Part shown: positions 2,434 through 53,061 of the stretch, piece by piece
How the letters are laid out: each line of letters starts with the position of its first letter
Numbering within the stretch: the first letter of the stretch is position 1
DNA from: Escherichia phage vB_EcoM_RZ
DNA: 64,000 nt
Sequence record: MW598459
Reading direction: 5' to 3' (one strand)
Program-made: the position numbers and the translations under genes
The notes under the pieces: generated by a model
The model's input: only the letters and a program-made list of their open reading frames with translations
What the model was told of the DNA's origin: nothing
The model's database searches: none

Positions 2434-3983
2434 TGACAACGACTAACACGCTAAAACACATTAGCGATAAATCCGAATATAAAACATTCGACCCGACGGG
2501 AACAGCTTTCCCGTCGACTGTTACCAACGTACAAGAGGCTTTAGGGTCTCTTAATAAAATTGCGTTAGATGGATATATCCCAGCCTCTTCCGAAACGACC
2601 GCAGGGCTCATCAGGCTAGCCACCACACAAGAAGTTATTGATGGTATTAGTCCAGACTCTGCAGTTACTCCAGCGACCTTAAAAGCTCGTTTAGACATCC
2701 CTACGCAAGCCACAGAAACTTATGTAGGTATTACCCGTTATGCAACCAATGCTGAAGCAATTGCCGGAACAGTAACCGATGCGGCTATTGTTCCATCTTC
2801 ATTAAAAGCAACAATTGATGATGTTTTTGCTGTTCGTGTCGGTACCGAAAATAATTTGGGTGTTCTTCGTATTAGTACCGAGGATGCAGCTTTAGCTGGT
2901 ACAGATGATACAACCGCTATGTCTCCGTTGAAAGTTGCTCTGGCAATTGGCAAAGCAACAGCAGCGCTTCCGACTTATTCAACTGCCACACAAACTGTTT
3001 CTGGTTTAGTACGAATTGCTACAAATGCTGAAGTGCAAGCAGGAACCCTGGGTGACGGTGTGGCAATTTCTCCAGCAGGTTTAAATGCTCGTACAGCAAC
3101 ACAAGACCGCGCTGGGATTATTCGTCTTGGTACTCAGTCAGAGATTAATAACAGTGTTGATGGTGTTGCGGTAACCGGAGCAACTCTTAATGACCGTGGC
3201 GCTACAACCGATATTCGCGGTGTTGTTAGATTAACTAATCAGGCAGGGGTTGCTCCCGGGGGTGACGGTGCTGGTGCCTTGGCTTGGAACGCTGATGTAA
3301 TTAACACTCGCGGTGGTCAACGAATTAATGGAAGTCTTTCTTTAGATTATATTTCCACCGGCAATTTTGATTCCAATACAGCTCATATGGGCGGTCAATT
3401 ACTTTCTACACAGCGTTATGCTTCTGAACGGGTTCCTGTCGGAACGGTGATGATGTTCGCAGGTGATAGTGCTCCTCCTGGCTGGATTATGTGTCATGGT
3501 GGCACCGTTAATGGTGACCAATTCCCTGACTATCGAAATACTGTTGGGACTCGTTTTGGTGGTGATTGGAATAACCCTGGCGTTCCTGATATGCGCGGCT
3601 TATTCGTTCGTGGCGCAGGTACGGGCGGTCATATTCTGAATAACCGTGGTCAAGATGGTTATGGTAAAGACCGTTTGGGTGTTGGTTGTGATGGAATGCA
3701 TGTTGGCGGTGTTCAGGCACAACAAATGTCATACCATAAACACGCTGGTGGCTGGGGTGAATATCAACGCAATGAAGCTCCATTTGGTGCGTCAGTTTAT
3801 CAGGGTTATCTTGGTACCAGAAAATATGCAGACTGGGACAATGCCTCGTATTTCACAAATGACGGATTTGAATTAGGTGGTGGTCGTGATTCTCTCGGAA
3901 CGTTAAACCGTGAAGGCCTTATCGGATATGAAACAAGACCTTGGAATATGTCTTTAAACTATATTATTAAAGTTCACTATTAA
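2433..3983 (+). CDS. 12: short tail fibre protein gp12
   Basis: 516 aa, Ala/Thr/Gly-rich repetitive fibre-like N-terminal two-thirds; position between 11 and wac; T4 gp12 about 527 aa. Confidence 0.75.
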   Translation: MTTTNTLKHISDKSEYKTFDPTGTAFPSTVTNVQEALGSLNKIALDGYIPASSETTAGLIRLATTQEVIDGISPDSAVTPATLKARLDIPTQATETYVGITRYATNAEAIAGTVTDAAIVPSSLKATIDDVFAVRVGTENNLGVLRISTEDAALAGTDDTTAMSPLKVALAIGKATAALPTYSTATQTVSGLVRIATNAEVQAGTLGDGVAISPAGLNARTATQDRAGIIRLGTQSEINNSVDGVAVTGATLNDRGATTDIRGVVRLTNQAGVAPGGDGAGALAWNADVINTRGGQRINGSLSLDYISTGNFDSNTAHMGGQLLSTQRYASERVPVGTVMMFAGDSAPPGWIMCHGGTVNGDQFPDYRNTVGTRFGGDWNNPGVPDMRGLFVRGAGTGGHILNNRGQDGYGKDRLGVGCDGMHVGGVQAQQMSYHKHAGGWGEYQRNEAPFGASVYQGYLGTRKYADWDNASYFTNDGFELGGGRDSLGTLNREGLIGYETRPWNMSLNYIIKVHY

Positions 3984-23485: not shown

Positions 23486-24334
23486 TTAATAAACGTAATC
23501 GTATATAATACCAGCTTCTAAAGCGGTGCGATGAATAATTCGACCATTACGAGATTCTTGTACATCAACCTCTGGATAGTCGGTAATCATTTTTTGAAGG
23601 GTATATCGGTGCAAATAATACGGGCTATCTGGAGCATCAGTTTTCCAGTCTTGCCCAGCAAGAGTCATTTTCTGAATTTCGTCCATAACCCACCAACCAC
23701 ACCAGATATAAGCTGAATTACGAACTGGCAGCGGATGAACGTAAGGTAGTTCGCCCTCTGGTTCAGGAGCTACTTTAGCCGTGACTGTTACATTACCAGT
23801 TTTTGTAACGGTTACAGGGTTATAATCAGTAGCAGATACAACAACAGAAACTTCAATTACCTGGGAACCTTCGGTGCTTGTATCGATTGCTAGAGTATCC
23901 GTGGTGTCAACTACAGGAGAACCGTCTTTCTTCCATGAATAGGCAAAAGTAGCACCAGCAGGCGCGCCAACTACATCTGCTTTAAATGAAGCTAGGGTGT
24001 CTTCCGGAACATTAATCGAAGCTGGAGTTAATGTCACAGAAACACCAGACATTGTTTTATTCTGGATAGTTAAAGTTGTTTCGGCTTCAGCTGTTTCTGG
24101 TTCGCCGTCCGCTGGTGTAGTTGTTGCAACAACTTTAATAGTCTTACTGTCTGCTGGACCAACAGCAACATAATCCATTGCAGCAGTCACAGAAGATTGA
24201 GGAACGCCATCAACGGTCCAGACAAATGATTCGGTACCTTCAGCTGCAGCACCGGAACCGGTCGCAGTGAAATTGGTTGTTGCTCCAATAACGGCCGTAG
24301 CCGTCAAAGGAGCAATAGTTACGGTATAAGCCAT
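23486..24334 (-). CDS. hoc: highly immunogenic outer capsid protein Hoc (short form)
   Basis: C-terminal TVTKTGNVTVTAKVAPEPEGELPYVHPLP...SAYIWCGWWVMDEIQKMT...YYLHRYTLQKM matches remembered T4 Hoc; 282 aa versus about 376 in T4. Confidence 0.85.
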   Translation of the reverse strand: MAYTVTIAPLTATAVIGATTNFTATGSGAAAEGTESFVWTVDGVPQSSVTAAMDYVAVGPADSKTIKVVATTTPADGEPETAEAETTLTIQNKTMSGVSVTLTPASINVPEDTLASFKADVVGAPAGATFAYSWKKDGSPVVDTTDTLAIDTSTEGSQVIEVSVVVSATDYNPVTVTKTGNVTVTAKVAPEPEGELPYVHPLPVRNSAYIWCGWWVMDEIQKMTLAGQDWKTDAPDSPYYLHRYTLQKMITDYPEVDVQESRNGRIIHRTALEAGIIYDYVY

Positions 24335-24343
24335 AATAAACCC

Positions 24344-25009
24344 TTATTTTAAAGTGACAAAAGATGAGTTACGAGTTTCTCGTACTAGAACAGACCCATT
24401 ACGATTGATGTAATAAATCAAACTGAATAGAGTTTGGTGTGCGGTGGGATGTGGGAAAGCAGTTGGACGTTCTTTCCAATCTGGAGTCTCGGCAATCCAC
24501 TGATAAATCCACCATGGAACAGTGCAGAATCCAGGGTTCTTACCAATAAGCATTAAATTCGGGCTAAAGTTTTTTGGCAGAGCAAATACGGGTTTTTCAG
24601 ATTCGATAACCTTAGCAACAGCAGCTTCGAACCTTTCTTCGACAAAAGGAATATCTTCTTCAACCACAACAACTGGTTCTTCGATTTCAACAACTTCAAC
24701 CTTTGCTTCGGTTGGAGCATCAAATAAGAGTTTAGCTTCTTCTTTAGCTGACTCATCGCCATCAAATTTAGCACCTGACAATTCATCATCGGCATCGATA
24801 AGGTCAGTGATGCTCAGGCCTTCATTATCATCAGGCATAGGCATGTCAGCAAATGCTTTAAGTCCTGCTTCCAGGTCAGCCAACATATTATCAAAGGTTT
24901 TTGTTTTCTTAACATCAACACCAAGTGATGCTGCATATTCGGCTAATTTTTCTTTGGCTTCTTTTTTCTCGAGGACACGAATTTCCTCAATGTAGTTCTT
25001 GTCAATCAT
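24344..25009 (-). CDS. inh: inhibitor of prohead protease (Inh)-like protein
   Basis: 221 aa (T4 Inh about 226 aa); position between hoc and uvsW. Confidence 0.6.
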   Translation of the reverse strand: MIDKNYIEEIRVLEKKEAKEKLAEYAASLGVDVKKTKTFDNMLADLEAGLKAFADMPMPDDNEGLSITDLIDADDELSGAKFDGDESAKEEAKLLFDAPTEAKVEVVEIEEPVVVVEEDIPFVEERFEAAVAKVIESEKPVFALPKNFSPNLMLIGKNPGFCTVPWWIYQWIAETPDWKERPTAFPHPTAHQTLFSLIYYINRNGSVLVRETRNSSFVTLK

Positions 25010-25027
25010 GATGAACCTCGGTTAGTG

Positions 25028-25035
25028 TATAAATA
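25028..25035 (+). promoter_or_regulatory. late promoter (TATAAATA) for uvsW
   Basis: exact TATAAATA about 28 nt upstream of uvsW ATG. Confidence 0.55.
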
Positions 25036-25063
25036 TAGATATATTTATTACCTTGGAATCATC

Positions 25064-26563
25064 ATGGATATTAAAATCAACTTTCTAAATTTTAGTCACG
25101 TGCATGTTGAATGTGAAGATGGAATCTTCTACGAACTCCGTGATTACTTCAGCTTCGAAGCTGAAAACTATCGCTTCAATCCAAAGTTCAAGCAGGGAGT
25201 TTGGGACGGACGAATCCGCCTCCTGGATTACAACCGTAAATTACCATACGGTTTGGTTAATCAAATTAAAAAGTTCGCTGACCAGTTTGGCTATTCATTC
25301 TGGATTGACCCACAAATCACCGAGAAAGAAGAAATCTCTCGCGAAGAATTCAACAAATGGGTCGAGTCAAAAGAAATCTATTCAGGCAATACCAAGATAA
25401 CGCCCCATTGGTATCAATCTGACGCCGTATATGATGGTCTGGTCAACAGAAGAAAGATTCTGAACTTACCTACGTCTGCAGGTAAAAGCCTCATCCAGGC
25501 GCTTCTGGCGCGATATTATCTCGAGAACTATGAAGGCAAGGTGCTTATCCTTGTTCCTACAACTGCGCTTGTTGACCAGATGATTAATGACTTTGTTGAT
25601 TATCGGCTTTTCCCTCGTGCAGCTTGTCTGGGTATTCGTTCTGGGACTAAACGCGATTCTGATGCGATGATTTATGTATCGACTTATCAGACGGCTGTAA
25701 AACAACCTAAAGAATGGTTTGAACAGTTTGGCCAGTTTATGAATGACGAATGCCACATGGCTACAGGTAAATCGATTTCGACGGTTATCGAAGGCCTTAC
25801 GAATTGCATGTTTAAATTTGGTCTGTCAGGTTCACTCCGTGATGGCAAAGCCAACCTTATGCAATATATGGGTCTGTTTGGTGATATCTTTAAACCAGTA
25901 TCAACATCTAAATTAATGGAAGATGGCCAGGTTACTGACCTTAAAATAAATAGTATTTTCCTTCGTTACCCTGATGAATTCACCGTTAAAATGAAAGGTA
26001 AAACTTATCAGGATGAAATCAAGGTAATTACAAAAGCTACACGCAGAAATAAATGGGTAACAAACCTTGCCCTCAAGCTTTCTAAAAAAGATGAAAACGT
26101 CTTTTTGATGTTTAAGAATATCGAGCACGGTAAATCGATGTTTGAAATGATTAAGGAAGCTGGTCATGAAAAAGTGTATTATGTTTCTGGGGAAGTCGAT
26201 ACCGAAACTCGTAATGCTCTGAAGGTCATGGCAGAGAATGGAAAGGGAATTATTGTTGTAGCTTCATATGGTGTATTCTCGACGGGGATTTCCGTTAAAA
26301 ACCTCCATCATATTATTTTCGCTCACCCAGTCAAGTCAAAGGTAATTGTACTCCAGACAATTGGTCGTGTGCTTCGAAAACATGAATCCAAATCGACCGC
26401 AAACGTGTGGGACATTGTGGATGATATGGGGGTCAAACCCAAATCAGCAAACGCTAAAAAGAAATATGTTCATATTAACTTTGCGCTTAAACATGCACTA
26501 GAACGTATTCAGCGGTATGCAGACGAAAAATTCAATTATGTAATTAAACAGGTGGAAATATAA
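25064..26563 (+). CDS. uvsW: UvsW DNA/RNA helicase
   Basis: from MDIKINF...; NLPTSAGKSLIQALLARYYLENYEGK (Walker A), DECH box, LQTIGRVLRKH; closely matches remembered T4 UvsW; about 500 aa. Confidence 0.9.
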   Translation: MDIKINFLNFSHVHVECEDGIFYELRDYFSFEAENYRFNPKFKQGVWDGRIRLLDYNRKLPYGLVNQIKKFADQFGYSFWIDPQITEKEEISREEFNKWVESKEIYSGNTKITPHWYQSDAVYDGLVNRRKILNLPTSAGKSLIQALLARYYLENYEGKVLILVPTTALVDQMINDFVDYRLFPRAACLGIRSGTKRDSDAMIYVSTYQTAVKQPKEWFEQFGQFMNDECHMATGKSISTVIEGLTNCMFKFGLSGSLRDGKANLMQYMGLFGDIFKPVSTSKLMEDGQVTDLKINSIFLRYPDEFTVKMKGKTYQDEIKVITKATRRNKWVTNLALKLSKKDENVFLMFKNIEHGKSMFEMIKEAGHEKVYYVSGEVDTETRNALKVMAENGKGIIVVASYGVFSTGISVKNLHHIIFAHPVKSKVIVLQTIGRVLRKHESKSTANVWDIVDDMGVKPKSANAKKKYVHINFALKHALERIQRYADEKFNYVIKQVEI

Positions 26564-48208: not shown

Positions 48209-48212
<4 letters not shown>

Positions 48213-48691
48213 ACACCAAGCTCCTTATAAAGTTCTTCGCGGCAAGTTTTAAGGATTTTACCAGTTTCATAAGCTGCACTTTCAGAAACATCACCAAGTG
48301 CAGCGGCAGATTGCATTTGACCATGGCGTTTAGCTGCATATTCAAAACTTTTTACTAGCTCACGAATACGTTCTTTTTCATTGTACTCTTCAATGAATTC
48401 AGGGTATTCCCAAACTGGGCGCATCATACGATACCACTGTTGGATGGTAATATAATTACTTCCATCCAGATTAATAATTTGCGAAGGCTTAATAGCGCCC
48501 GGAGCATAAAAAGTTACCTGTCTTACTACATCAATACCGTCCACCATAGCCCAAGCAAAATCGAAAGTTGCCTTCTTTTCAATTGGTGTACTTGCACAGG
48601 ACCCTAATTTTAAGAGCTTTTGTAATGCAGGGGATTTAACACCTGAAATGTATTCAGGCTTAGCCACAAAACTGTTATCACGTAATGTCAT
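48209..48691 (-). CDS. hypothetical protein
   Basis: 160 aa from MTLRDNSF; SD GAGGAAA; early promoter lies inside the longer ORF so the upstream 39 codons are rejected. Confidence 0.5.
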
Positions 48692-48721
48692 AATATTTTC
48701 CTCAAATATTTTATAATCCGT

Positions 48722-48765
48722 GGGAGCATTATACTCTGCTCCCATAAGTTTGTACACTACTTTCC
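48722..48765 (-). promoter_or_regulatory. early-type promoter with -10 inside inverted repeat GGGAGCA/TGCTCCC
   Basis: reverse complement: GTGTACAaacttatGGGAGCAgagTATAATgCTCCC. Confidence 0.5.
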
Positions 48766-48860
48766 AAAAAGACCTTGGACACATAAAGTGGCCGCAATTC
48801 CAAAACAAAAACAGAATGCACCAAATCTAACAATATCCCAACCAAGGCTACAGGTCTCAA

Positions 48861-49151
48861 TCATTTACAACGTTCCTCTTTTAGTTCAGAACGATAATAA
48901 CATAACATACCTTTTTGGTCATGTACATATCTTTTTACATCATTCATCCAAATCCTGAATTCTTGCGATGCTTCAAAAGGCATACCAACCCAGGCTTGAC
49001 CCTCAATTACCTTAACTTCCCATTGCTGTTTGTAATCAGCCAATGCAACAGGCCAATTAGGATGAACTTGGATTGTGGGCTCCACAACGGGCTTCTGGGC
49101 ACATGAAACGAGTCCAATAGCCAAACATACTGCCATGATAGATTTCATCAT
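48861..49151 (-). CDS. outer-membrane spanin (lipoprotein) candidate
   Basis: 96 aa; signal peptide with lipobox LVSC; immediately downstream of the i-spanin candidate. Confidence 0.55.
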   Translation of the reverse strand: MMKSIMAVCLAIGLVSCAQKPVVEPTIQVHPNWPVALADYKQQWEVKVIEGQAWVGMPFEASQEFRIWMNDVKRYVHDQKGMLCYYRSELKEERCK

Positions 49152-49501
49152 TTGGTGAGCTCCTGAAAGTCCTGGGCGAACTTATCAAAAGACTGATTAA
49201 TCTGTTTTTCAACTAATTTAGGCTTCGCAGCCACAACCTTAGTACGTTTTGCATCTGCACGAAGTTTATCATTTTCCTTCTGTAGGTGTTCAACATATTC
49301 CTGACGCTGTTGGTCAAGGAGATTAATTTGATTAACCTGGTCTTTTATTGATTGCAGATTTTTCGCATTATCTTCTGCGACTTTGGTGACTTCCGCCACC
49401 GCTGTCTTGAGATTATCCACTTTTGCTTTTAGATAGAAACCACTACCAGCAGTTACTACCAGGGCGAGCATAAGCCCTGCAGTGAGATTACTTATTTGCA
49501 T
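49148..49501 (-). CDS. inner-membrane spanin candidate
   Basis: 117 aa; N-terminal TM helix then long coiled-coil; ATGA coupling to the o-spanin ORF. Confidence 0.55.
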   Translation of the reverse strand: MQISNLTAGLMLALVVTAGSGFYLKAKVDNLKTAVAEVTKVAEDNAKNLQSIKDQVNQINLLDQQRQEYVEHLQKENDKLRADAKRTKVVAAKPKLVEKQINQSFDKFAQDFQELTK

Positions 49502-49995
49502 AACTTGATGATTACCTCAACAATATCATCCTGGGATAAACCATTCAGGAGGATGTGATTTGTACTGTCAGATGCTGAAATGCGGAACTGATTACCAACT
49601 TCATCCGCCATATCATCCTGGGTTAACACTGGGTGTTTAATTCCCAGGCGGTGTTGAAGTGTCAGGGGTTCAACCACAACATAACAAACACATCCATTGA
49701 TATGCACATTAGGTTGGGTCTGATTGATGAACACTTCTGCATCATATTTAACCAAATGGTTCTTTAAGAAGTCAACCATTTCAGGAACAGATTCATGCAG
49801 TGCTTCTTTCCGCTCTTCTGATTTTTTATCGCGATATTCTTTTTGTTTCGCCTTCAACTTTTTGTTAGAGGCGAGTTTTTTCCGCAGGTCAGTCATAAGA
49901 CCAATTTTCTTGGTCCCTTTATAGACATAAATTCCGTCATGACGGTCACCATATTCATTGACAATCATTTCATTTGAAATCAGTTGCATATCCAT
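49492..49995 (-). CDS. alc: Alc-like transcription termination factor (by position and size)
   Basis: 167 aa from MDMQLIS (T4 Alc 167 aa); between rnlA and spanin ORFs; SD GAGGAAA. Confidence 0.5.
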   Translation of the reverse strand: MDMQLISNEMIVNEYGDRHDGIYVYKGTKKIGLMTDLRKKLASNKKLKAKQKEYRDKKSEERKEALHESVPEMVDFLKNHLVKYDAEVFINQTQPNVHINGCVCYVVVEPLTLQHRLGIKHPVLTQDDMADEVGNQFRISASDSTNHILLNGLSQDDIVEVIIKLCK

Positions 49996-50008
49996 AATAT
50001 TTTCCTCA

Positions 50009-50242
50009 TTAGTAGCGGTTATAACCCCGGGGACCAAAAGAGTTGGCACCCAGGCGCTCATCTTTCTTTTTGGCTCTTGCTCTAAACCCGGAATCACCTG
50101 TTTGAGCTTTCAGTTCTTTTAACAATTTGGCCTTTAGGTCAGTAATGAAACCAATCCGGCGGTCTCCCTTATAGACATAGATTCCATCATTTCTGTCACC
50201 ATATGCCTTTGTAACTCTGTCATTTGTAATTAAGTTTAACAT
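50009..50242 (-). CDS. short paralogue of the N-terminal domain of the alc-like protein
   Basis: 77 aa; NDRVTKAYGDRNDGIYVYKGDRRIGFITDLKAKL vs alc NEMIVNEYGDRHDGIYVYKGTKKIGLMTDLRKKL; own promoter and SD. Confidence 0.5.
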   Translation of the reverse strand: MLNLITNDRVTKAYGDRNDGIYVYKGDRRIGFITDLKAKLLKELKAQTGDSGFRARAKKKDERLGANSFGPRGYNRY

Positions 50243-50261
50243 GTTTTGGTCCTCATCAGTA

Positions 50262-50297
50262 GTTGATGGAACCATTATGTATAGAAAGAAGGGGCTT
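50262..50297 (-). promoter_or_regulatory. early-type promoter (GTGTACA-N17-CATAAT)
   Basis: reverse complement: GGTGTACAagccccttctttctataCATAATgg. Confidence 0.5.
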
Positions 50298-50312
50298 GTA
50301 CACCCCTTTTTA

Positions 50313-51449
50313 TTATTCAGGAAGGATTACTTCCGCCTGGTAGTCTAACGGAATGTAAAGTTTATGATTTTTAAGGAAAACTTTATTGATTTGAGCAATC
50401 GTTTGTTCAGTTTCCTGTGGGCGTTGATAGGTGTTCATTAATACGGAGAACAATCCCGGATATGGTTTACATAACTCTTGACCTTTAATCGCAAACTCGC
50501 GACGGTCTTTTCCTGCTAACTGTTTTTGTGCATCAAGCAACAGTCCAAGAGTGTTGGACAGATAATCCAGATGTGTTGCAGTAAAGGCAGTAACTTTTTC
50601 ACGAGCATAAGTATCGCCAGTAAACATGGCAATAACATCATCCGCGCCGCCAGCAACAACAACTTCAAACAGTCGCTCATTATTATTAATGGAGTCTTTA
50701 GTATGATGCAGAGCACAATACCATTCTGTTTTCATCTTGAACTTCTGACCGTTAGCCATCTCATAGACGAAGCCTTCAATCTCTTTCATACCGCGAACAT
50801 TCTCAATGGTTGCCGGGTCATATGCTTCAACCAGGAAAGGACGAAGCGCTGCATCTTTGAACAGCTCCTGATAAGGAATATATTCACCAGTTTCATTATG
50901 ACGAACGTTCAGTAAAATCAGGTCACGTTCCTGGTAAGGCAAAACAATGCGGTTGGTCGGTGCAACATATTCCATGTTGCATGTATAACCAGCTTCAGTG
51001 ATTTCAGTCACACGAGCCCTGAATGCACTGCGATGTTCTTGTTTAAACACCTGCAAGGATTCAGCTGCTTGGGAGCTTTTGATTGACCCTTTGGATTTAA
51101 AGGCGATATTGGTCTGGTCCATATAAGTGGAAACCAAACTACCATCAGCTTTTGCAGTAACCAGGACAACTTCATCAAGGTTAAGGTCCATGGTCATTGG
51201 ATTCTCACCCAGATTAAAGAATTTTTCCATAGGACGAGCAGCAATGCGAACTGGACCATTGTCATCCATTTCAAACATAATGCCACGGCACTCCAGCGCA
51301 TCATCAAGAAGCCAATCACTATAGGAAGCATAGTTATAGCTAAAGATGCGGAACTTAGTTTCAAATGGAGAAACAAAATCCGTATAGAAAAACTTACCTT
51401 TATCGGATTCGGCACAAAGCTTCATTAAGTTATCATATAATTCAATCAT
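50313..51449 (-). CDS. rnlA: RNA ligase 1
   Basis: 378 aa; FRIFSYNYASYSDWLLDDALECRGIMFEMD...PMEKFFNL matches remembered T4 Rnl1. Confidence 0.9.
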   Translation of the reverse strand: MIELYDNLMKLCAESDKGKFFYTDFVSPFETKFRIFSYNYASYSDWLLDDALECRGIMFEMDDNGPVRIAARPMEKFFNLGENPMTMDLNLDEVVLVTAKADGSLVSTYMDQTNIAFKSKGSIKSSQAAESLQVFKQEHRSAFRARVTEITEAGYTCNMEYVAPTNRIVLPYQERDLILLNVRHNETGEYIPYQELFKDAALRPFLVEAYDPATIENVRGMKEIEGFVYEMANGQKFKMKTEWYCALHHTKDSINNNERLFEVVVAGGADDVIAMFTGDTYAREKVTAFTATHLDYLSNTLGLLLDAQKQLAGKDRREFAIKGQELCKPYPGLFSVLMNTYQRPQETEQTIAQINKVFLKNHKLYIPLDYQAEVILPE

Positions 51450-51856
51450 TTCTTCACCTTATGTTGGTAATTCCACGGGGGATTAAAAAGCTTGATGAAC
51501 ATCGGCTCTTCCAGAGACATCGTTTCGACTGACATTGTGCCAAGTTCATTGGTCATTGACAGATTGAAACATTGTCGTGCATAGAATACCACCTTTTTGC
51601 CTTCTTGTAAAGCTTCATGTATCATCCGGGATTTGTTTGAATCACTCGTCTGTTCGATTCGGTTAATTGCAGTCCGGTAATAGTTGATACGCTTCTTAAG
51701 GTTGTTCGTCTTACCAATATACACTAGTTCATCATCAACTGAAATAGCATAGATAACATTTTTCTTGTTTGCGAGAGTAAGGATAGGGATTTTATCATCG
51801 ACTAACTCTAACTCCGCGTATTTTATAAAACTGTATTCGTCAGCGATTTGTTTCAT
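51446..51856 (-). CDS. denA: endonuclease II (GIY-YIG)
   Basis: 136 aa from MKQIADEYSFIKY; NVIYAI...DELVYIGKT...KRINYYRTAINR...FYARQCFNLSMTNELGT matches remembered T4 EndoII. Confidence 0.9.
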   Translation of the reverse strand: MKQIADEYSFIKYAELELVDDKIPILTLANKKNVIYAISVDDELVYIGKTNNLKKRINYYRTAINRIEQTSDSNKSRMIHEALQEGKKVVFYARQCFNLSMTNELGTMSVETMSLEEPMFIKLFNPPWNYQHKVKK

Positions 51857-51857
51857 A

Positions 51858-51882
51858 GACAAAAAGGGCCGAAGCCCTTTCC
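51858..51882 (-). terminator. intrinsic terminator after nrdB
   Basis: GGGCCGAAGCCC hairpin followed on minus by TTTTTG, ending 2 nt before denA ATG. Confidence 0.65.
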
Positions 51883-53061
51883 TTATAGATATTTACGGAA
51901 ACCAGCAAGAACGTTCTCATCGACGTCATTGTCAATCTGGGCTACCAGGTAAGCAGACAACTCAACTTCTTGTGGTGCTGATTGCACATTATCAGAGTTA
52001 AGATATTCGCGAATCCATGGAATCGGGTGCTTAGTAGATTCTAACACGATTTCACACGGGAGACCGCATTGCTTCATACGAGAAACCGTCAGGTAATCGA
52101 TGAACCGGTTAAGAATCTCGACGCTCAGCCCAGGGAGTCCACCATCTTTAAACAGATGCACGGCCCATTCTTTTTCCTGGCGATTAACTTCCATGAAAAT
52201 GGCTGCGGCTTCTGCTTCACATTCGTGAGCGATTTTAACCCATTCGTCACCGTCAACACCAGTCTGCAGCTGACGAAGAATATATTGGGTCCCCTTAAGG
52301 TGGAGCTGTTCATCACGGGCGATGAACTTCATTATCTTCGCATTGCCTTCCATGATTTCCATGTTCTTATGGAAGTTGAAAGTGCAAGCAAAAGATACAT
52401 AAAAACGAATAGCTTCCAGGGCATTAATGACATGCAGACAGAGATAAAGAGACTTCATCAATGCTCGTTTGGCGATAGCTTCTTGTTTGATAGCTCGTTC
52501 CAAACGTTCGTCCGCTTCGGGAGTTTCTTTGGCCAGTTCAACAAAAGCAATCTGGTTTTGCCATTGACGAGTTTTATTCAGAACATCATCATAGTAATGG
52601 CCAATGGATTCTGCACGCTTCATGATTGCATCATCTAACAGGATTTCGTCGAATACCTTCGCCGGGTCCGTATAGAGATTTCGCATGATGTGCGTATAAG
52701 AACGAGAGTGAATTGTCTCGCTGAATGTCCAGGTCTGAATCCATGTATCAAGACTTGGGTCAGAAACTAATGCGGCTAATGCTGCAGCTGGAGCACGACC
52801 CTGGATACTATCCAGAAGTGATTGGTATTTCAGGTTGTTGGTAAAAATATTTTGTTGATGTTCAGGAAGCTTATTAAATTGAGCTCCGTCCATCATCAGG
52901 TTTACTTCCTCTGGACGCCAGAAGAATGATAATTGCTTTTCTGTTAATTCTTCGAAAACTTTATGACGCTGGATATCATAACGGGCAATCCCCAATCCTG
53001 AACCGAAGAACATTGGCTCGGCTAAAACATCCACCGGAGTGGTATTAAAAACTGTACTCAT
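51883..53061 (-). CDS. nrdB: ribonucleotide reductase small subunit NrdB (uninterrupted)
   Basis: 392 aa continuous ORF (T4 NrdB 388 aa); diiron-site E..H motifs; no intron. Confidence 0.9.
   Translation of the reverse strand: MSTVFNTTPVDVLAEPMFFGSGLGIARYDIQRHKVFEELTEKQLSFFWRPEEVNLMMDGAQFNKLPEHQQNIFTNNLKYQSLLDSIQGRAPAAALAALVSDPSLDTWIQTWTFSETIHSRSYTHIMRNLYTDPAKVFDEILLDDAIMKRAESIGHYYDDVLNKTRQWQNQIAFVELAKETPEADERLERAIKQEAIAKRALMKSLYLCLHVINALEAIRFYVSFACTFNFHKNMEIMEGNAKIMKFIARDEQLHLKGTQYILRQLQTGVDGDEWVKIAHECEAEAAAIFMEVNRQEKEWAVHLFKDGGLPGLSVEILNRFIDYLTVSRMKQCGLPCEIVLESTKHPIPWIREYLNSDNVQSAPQEVELSAYLVAQIDNDVDENVLAGFRKYL

Follow-up and report, generated by a model that had tools for sequence, protein, structure and literature searches.

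A short paralogue of the Alc N-terminal module is encoded between rnlA and alc in Gapriverviruses

The stretch of DNA analysed here, 64,000 nucleotides of Escherichia phage vB_EcoM_RZ (record MW598459) and referred to below as the window, comes from a Gaprivervirus (Tevenvirinae) and carries two genes related to the alc gene of phage T4. One is a full-length alc, and the other is a short open reading frame (ORF), here called alcB, that lies directly upstream of it. The gene order is denA-rnlA-alcB-alc-pseT.3-pseT.2, and the location of alc between rnlA and pseT.3 matches that in T4. The coordinates that an earlier note on this DNA had given for both ORFs are right, and the two lie on the minus strand. 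The note had named no T4 gene between rnlA and alc. This is correct, the T4 rnlA-alc spacing being a gene-free gap of only 64 bp. The 1-kb region around the pair shares 99.1% identity with that of Escherichia phage DK-13 and 93-99% with some 30 further records. Coordinates are collected in Table 1.

The downstream ORF is alc, as had been supposed from its sequence. It matches the Pfam family ALC (PF17527) end to end with 166.4 bits (cut-off 25, E value 6.5e-49), its residues 1-166 covering profile positions 1-176 of 177, and it matches PHROG 1253 with an E value of 1.6e-73. A PDB sequence search with Alc gave no match, and NCBIfam has no model for Alc or for the short protein. The AlphaFold2 model of Alc has a predicted local distance difference test score (pLDDT) of 92.8 and a predicted template modelling score (pTM) of 0.70. 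In it, residues 8-15 form a helix and residues 23-26/29-33 a beta-hairpin; a long helix of 47 residues (34-80) follows, and residues 87-166 make up an alpha/beta domain. The invariant NxTQPNV block belongs to this C-terminal alpha/beta domain (C-domain, residues ~87-166). In T4, Alc makes E. coli RNA polymerase terminate on DNA with unmodified cytosine but not on modified DNA, an activity known for T4 Alc only, and rpoB mutations in the beta dispensable region I block Alc (PMC2988021).

alcB is a paralogue of one module of Alc and not a complete Alc. A composition-adjusted BLASTP alignment of the two window proteins has 31 identities in 64 positions (48%, E value 7e-17) and spans the first 62 residues of Alc. 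The block common to both, YGDRxDGIYVYKGxxxIGxxTDL, had been called unmistakable in the earlier note; it is compositionally ordinary, and an explanation by low-complexity sequence is excluded. Against Pfam ALC the short ORF scores 39.9 bits (cut-off 25, E value 4.5e-10), and the match takes in profile positions 3-62 of 177 only. The alpha/beta domain of Alc is lacking; the short protein ends at residue 77, and its tail is unrelated to Alc residues 64-167. The short ORF also matches PHROG 17715 end to end (77 of 77 positions, E value 1.5e-53), in a search made with an 88-residue reading of which residues 12-88 are profile positions 1-77. That longer reading would start at ATG 50275, which has no Shine-Dalgarno (SD) sequence and lies inside a -10-like hexamer, and an in-frame TAA closes it in 4 of 11 relatives. 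The ATG at 50242 has the SD that had been reported for the short copy, and the 77-residue form is therefore the product. The 77-residue ORF is a genuine protein-coding gene of the kind annotated alcb in phage SP18, and our confidence in its reality and anatomy is high.

The relationship extends to the DNA. The two copies of the duplicated unit are identical at 98 of 136 nucleotides (72%), with an alignment score of 97 vs 25 +/- 4 for shuffled sequences, and direct repeats D1-D3 are spaced by 247-250 bp. Upstream of each ATG, 18 of 24 nucleotides of leader and SD agree, in register with the coding repeats. The score of the leader-only alignment was reached by 5 of 1000 shuffles. Since the homology takes in the leader, the unit ran from at least 31 nucleotides upstream of the alc start to about codon 63-72. 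These alignments indicate that the short gene goes back to an old tandem duplication in which a unit of some 250 bp, with the alc leader, the SD and approximately the first 63-72 alc codons, was copied. The earlier note had proposed that part of alc was duplicated in tandem, and protein BLASTP, Pfam and the DNA-level alignment support this for the 5' end of the gene.

The short ORF ends, with its last residues and its stop codon, inside the leader part of the second copy (50003-50026), in what was once a duplicate of the alc leader. Divergence is too high for alignment in the segment 50027-50053. The heptamer AATGGTT is present in the leader (50270-50276) and, some two unit lengths away, at alc codons 71-73 (49774-49780); this pair may mark the break points of the duplication. 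It is a post-hoc observation, and AATGGTT is absent from T4 and from the uncultured contig L013 described below. When the N-domains are joined in a neighbour-joining tree, the short copy forms a long, unsupported branch that is about equidistant from all Alc proteins; since its placement lacks support, the donor lineage cannot be named.

The first part of the short protein is predicted to have the same elements as Alc residues 1-45 in the two AlphaFold2 models. The pLDDT is 91-93 over residues 11-40 (78, 91, 93, 92 and 78 in successive 10-residue blocks) and about 50 beyond residue 47, where the tail is predicted to be disordered. The I, G, D, G, I, G, D and L positions that are invariant in the Alc family are kept. 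As modelled, this N-module appears to fold on its own. No solved structure resembling the small N-module was found.

The last 15 codons of alcB have no counterpart in Alc. They encode a tail with the consensus R-x-G-x-N-S-F-G-P-x3-N-[KR]-[FY]-COOH, preceded by a Gly-rich basic stretch, 'GF(GW)'. No change at R63, G65, N67, S68, F69, G70, P71 or N75 is seen in any of three lineages. The basic, Gly/Arg-rich tail seen by the earlier note is confirmed, and the whole short protein is basic, whereas the Alc C-domain is acidic. The same note had spoken of a truncated paralogue. This is apt for the N-terminal part, a partial copy of Alc, but not for the C-terminal half, which is a distinct motif conserved in the three lineages. 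Because it has an invariant tail motif of its own, the short protein is more than a truncated Alc.

Selection was compared in 11 Gaprivervirus genomes. The ratio of non-synonymous to synonymous substitution rates (dN/dS) is 0.117 for the short gene vs 0.109 for alc, and 17 of the 24 variable sites of the short gene are at third codon positions. In the last 15 codons there are no non-synonymous differences vs 182 synonymous ones, summed over genome pairs (proportion of synonymous differences, pS, 0.28); a CGG/AGA swap in the tail, for example, keeps the Arg. This pattern excludes decay of a remnant as well as conservation only on account of the alc translation signals. The alc gene itself is a mosaic within Gaprivervirus. 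Codons 1-60 (49816-49995) exist as two diverged alleles, with pS 0.34 and a proportion of non-synonymous differences (pN) of 0.049, and codons 61-167 (49495-49815) are nearly invariant (pS 0.06, pN 0.0014). The short gene, about 250 bp away, likewise has two alleles, and these are found in free combination with those of codons 1-60, which suggests frequent recombination in this small region.

The short gene is already catalogued in public annotation. The GenBank record of Shigella phage SP18 (2010) names the pair alca and alcb, and its note on alcb (ADO19581.1) reads 'similar to N-terminal region of bacteriophage JS98 Alc'. The records of VR7 (VR7ORF243c) and VR20 (VR20_237) mention similarity to T4 Alc. 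These genes and PHROG 17715 are the same gene as that of the window, with 95-100% protein identity and the same position between rnlA and alc. Public records name the protein by homology only, as 'inhibitor of host transcription' or 'hypothetical protein', and a literature search found no functional or structural study of the gene. What is added here is the leader-inclusive anatomy of the duplication, the bicistronic arrangement described below, the presence of the NSFGP tail in two uncultured lineages and the mapping of the short protein onto the Alc N-module.

The duplication, which had been suggested for checking in related genomes, has a narrow distribution. An Alc-like match was found in 795 phage records, but two places match in only about 34, of which about 33 carry the full-length short gene, intact. 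The 90%-identity cluster of the short protein holds 38 distinct sequences. Word-based protein searches returned near-identical short proteins only, and an exhaustive profile search over 1.84 billion cluster representatives was needed to find P0042; that search gave only 33 Alc-family representatives, nearly all of 150-190 residues. P0042 (78 residues) is encoded on the uncultured contig L013, between rnlA and an Alc 77% identical to that of the window. The nearest cultured relatives of L013 are Gapriverviruses, at about 71% nucleotide identity. The uncultured lineage L024/L025 has a 77-residue gene in the same place and an Alc 75% identical to that of the window. In lineages whose Alc is 63% or 60% identical to that of the window, rnlA is followed directly by alc and the short gene is absent. 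The short proteins of Gaprivervirus, L013 and L024/L025 share 47-51% identity with one another, and the presence of the gene in the two uncultured lineages means that it is older than the genus. Searched for as a degenerate DNA pattern, the tail motif was found in the viral collection only in VR20, VR25 and VR26; the metagenome collection gave one Gaprivervirus contig and four chance matches.

Short or split forms of Alc also occur elsewhere. On a distant T4-like contig (L014, positions 2894-3431, from Logan SRR10769897), Alc is split into a 61-residue N-part and a 111-residue C-part that lie in different frames, 16 nucleotides apart, and the C-part has no SD. The break is close to the boundary of the short paralogue; it may reflect a frameshift, an error of assembly or a true split of the gene. 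The tequatrovirus Escherichia phage vB_EcoM-G28 has a 63-residue Alc (P0038, AVH86055.1) with a frameshift beyond residue 48. This truncation, either natural or due to sequencing, involves no duplication.

T4-type early promoters, which serve the unmodified host polymerase early in infection, have GTTTAC-like -35 and TATAAT-like -10 hexamers 17-18 bp apart. A consensus scan found one promoter-like site upstream of the alcB-alc pair and none between the two genes. The region of this site aligns with the T4 rnlA-alc intergenic sequence GTTTAC...TATAGT, and the aligned upstream hexamers are GTTTAC...CATAAT in L013 and GTTTAC...TAGTAT in L024. Both hexamers are identical in the 11 relatives, with a single spacer substitution in two loci. 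The earlier note had credited the short copy with an early promoter of its own. A T4-early-type promoter-like site does lie upstream, but it is not an extra one, since it aligns with the T4 alc promoter region. A putative terminator-like hairpin follows the rnlA stop and is almost unchanged in the 11 Gaprivervirus loci, two of which have one substitution in the T-rich tail. The hairpin overlaps the promoter-like site, and the -35-like hexamer lies in its loop.

The stop codon of alcB lies next to the translation start of alc, with the alc ATG 13 nucleotides downstream of it. In VR7-type genomes, L013 and L024 the stop directly overlaps the SD in the form TGAGGA, and in every lineage the stop is on or beside the alc SD (TAATGAGGA, TATTGAGGA, TTTTGAGGA, TTCTGAGGA). 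Since the one promoter-like site aligns with the T4 alc promoter region and no site precedes alc, the two genes look like a single bicistron of the early-promoter type, with alc as the second gene. Given this arrangement and a stop that overlaps or abuts the alc SD, the short protein and Alc are probably made together, possibly by coupled translation.

Table 1. Positions of alcB, alc, their associated elements and the neighbouring genes in the window
Feature	Position	Strand	Description or basis
alcB, short Alc paralogue	50009-50242	minus	77 amino acids, 8.8 kDa, isoelectric point (pI) 10.1
SD of alcB (GAGGA)	50250-50254	minus	7 nucleotides ahead of ATG 50242; kept by all 11 relatives
N-module of the short protein	50108-50242	minus	residues 1-45; predicted helix 7-14, beta-hairpin 22-25/28-32, helix from 33 (AlphaFold2)
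Conserved C-terminal tail motif	50012-50056	minus	residues 63-77, RLGANSFGPRGYNRY
alc, full-length Alc	49492-49995	minus	167 amino acids; inhibitor/terminator of host transcription (Pfam, PHROG, position)
Duplicated unit, copy 1	50136-50273	minus	leader, SD and alcB codons 1-36; local alignment with 49886-50026
Duplicated unit, copy 2	49886-50026	minus	leader, SD and alc codons 1-37; same local alignment
Stop of alcB and SD of alc	50003-50011	minus	TAA (50009-50011) one base upstream of GAGGA (50003-50007)
T4-early-type promoter-like site	50274-50302	minus	-35 GTGTAC/TGTACA, 17-18 bp spacer, -10 CATAAT; consensus match
Terminator-like hairpin	50289-50308	minus	right after the rnlA stop; AAGGGGT-GTACAA-GCCCCTT, then CTTTCT; consensus scan, putative
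rnlA	50313-51449	minus	
denA	51446-51862	minus	
nrdB	51883-53061	minus	
pseT.3	49148-49501	minus	spanin pair with pseT.2
pseT.2	48861-49151	minus	spanin pair with pseT.3

Scans of the window for tRNAs and with Rfam gave no matches. At 48209-48808 the longest ORF (199 residues, TTG start) exceeds the PHROG 4482 profile, which is matched by residues 40-199 only. Its relatives are annotated at 160-178 residues, and an internal ATG is probably the true start.

The short protein may be the docking module of Alc on its own, and we put this forward as a tentative reading. The earlier note had offered a decoy, a modulator or a second specificity as possible roles. It would occupy or share the site of Alc on the polymerase without terminating transcription, or it would add a contact through its tail. 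The N-module would dock on the partner of the Alc N-module, which is most likely to be the host RNA polymerase given the rpoB mutations in beta dispensable region I that block Alc. Alc residues ~64-167 are missing, so termination activity is not expected; lacking the effector domain, the short protein would leave transcription running. It could tune or partition the access of Alc to the polymerase, or bring in a second contact by means of the tail motif.

Several observations weigh against this docking role. The connection of the N-module to RNA polymerase is indirect, as the beta site is deduced from resistance mutations only, and the review that describes them gives the mechanism of Alc as unknown (PMC2988021). 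It is equally conceivable that the N-module serves for oligomerisation or binds nucleic acid. Residues M10 and H19 and the KQKEY stretch, near-invariant in Alc, are changed in the short protein, and a different partner is possible. Each of the four possible pairings of short-protein and Alc N-domain alleles is present in the set of 11 genomes, with no sign of co-evolution, and between lineages the short protein evolves faster than Alc (47% vs 77% identity). The promoter and the terminator are consensus matches only, from a scan that gave 9 promoter-like sites where 6.5 were expected by chance. To our knowledge, the mechanism of Alc has been open for some 30 years, and we know of no Alc structure or domain map.

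The changed residues also bear on a somewhat unlikely alternative, in which the short protein has taken on a new function unrelated to the target of Alc. The N-module would then be no more than a small scaffold, with nucleic acid or another host protein bound by the basic Gly-rich segment and the NSFGP tail. A tail that has no Alc counterpart and is conserved like the N-module core in three lineages would fit this, as would the high pI, the long branch about equidistant from all Alc N-domains and the changes at M10, H19, K52 and Y54, which are near-invariant in Alc. However, the family-invariant residues of the N-module are all kept, the gene strictly adjoins alc in every lineage, and the tail matches no known motif or family, Pfam and NCBIfam giving nothing beyond ALC. 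The strict pairing with alc, and probable translation from one mRNA, may instead point to a regulatory subunit of Alc that pairs with it through the N-module, acting as an Alc self-association surface, and caps or activates Alc rather than competing for the polymerase. The kept fold of the N-module is consistent with such a subunit, and the almost exclusive variation of Alc at residues 1-60 (see the pN values above) would fit a changing interface. Oligomerisation of Alc is an assumption, though, the long helix (residues 34-63) is highly charged with no heptad-type coiled coil, and the short and Alc N-domain alleles assort freely among the 11 genomes. We regard a subunit role as unlikely.

It is very improbable that the short ORF is a decaying, non-functional remnant of the duplication that is open by chance. 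It is a partial copy, and one metagenome variant (P0002) has a frameshifted tail, but the low dN/dS, the excess of variable third positions, a tail without amino-acid change despite its pS and an intact ORF in the phage records and in lineages about 30% divergent in DNA refute decay at the level of sequence evolution. Hardly credible at all is a programmed +1 frameshift that would join the short ORF to alc and give an Alc with two N-modules. The alc frame of the window is open upstream to 50097 and overlaps the tail of the short ORF. Inspection of the window sequence by eye revealed no slippery site, however, and in every lineage alc starts with an ATG and an SD of its own; the fusion was rejected because a TGA eight codons ahead of the alc ATG closes that frame in L013.

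The chemistry of the phage DNA provides another context for the gene. According to two papers, Gapriverviruses have no known gene for hydroxymethylcytosine synthesis, yet they keep alc, denA, denB and dCTPase (PMC8056088; PMC12115623). In VR7, the segment between uvsX and imm (positions 24131-25345 of the record, L023) contains only a gene for a 167-residue hypothetical protein and 42.1, and no a-gt is annotated beside a-gt.2 to a-gt.5. On the T4 map, beta-gt and gene 42 are located between uvsX and imm. The short gene and the loss of hydroxymethylcytosine synthesis coincide in the genus. This is a single lineage, and the uncultured contigs stop short of that locus, so no link between the gene and the loss can be claimed. 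It is conceivable, though improbable, that the short protein is a clade-specific retuner of Alc in phages with changed DNA chemistry, which would shield differently modified DNA of the phage itself or redirect RNA polymerase through the NSFGP tail. If true, this would make it the first natural modulator known for a terminator that senses modification.

No surprising biology is shown here. As an Alc N-module that stands alone and is under selection, the short protein is a ready-made tool, and its binding partner would give the role of the module in Alc. The NSFGP tail is a candidate short docking motif.

T4 Alc itself is one of the closest known systems. The N-terminal ~63 residues of the short protein are homologous to Alc, with 52.7% identity to tequatrovirus Alc over residues 2-56, and the predicted helix/hairpin/helix module, the locus and the T4-early-type upstream region are all the same. 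Unlike Alc, the short protein stops halfway along the long helix and has none of the alpha/beta domain, and its Gly-rich basic segment and NSFGP tail are found in no Alc. A possible resemblance of the Alc C-domain to T4 MotA comes with modest scores and without sequence similarity (9% identity), and this domain is the part that the short protein is missing. MotA is the activator of middle transcription; its N-domain binds sigma-70 and its C-terminal 'double-wing' domain binds DNA. The MotA N-domain is all-helical, unlike the Alc N-module. A broader parallel is offered by microproteins or dominant-negative truncated paralogues, small proteins of a single domain that titrate the partner of a larger paralogue. 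By analogy, the short protein would likewise be the interaction module of a larger regulator that is co-expressed with it. It differs from them in its conserved extra tail, which suggests a role beyond passive titration.

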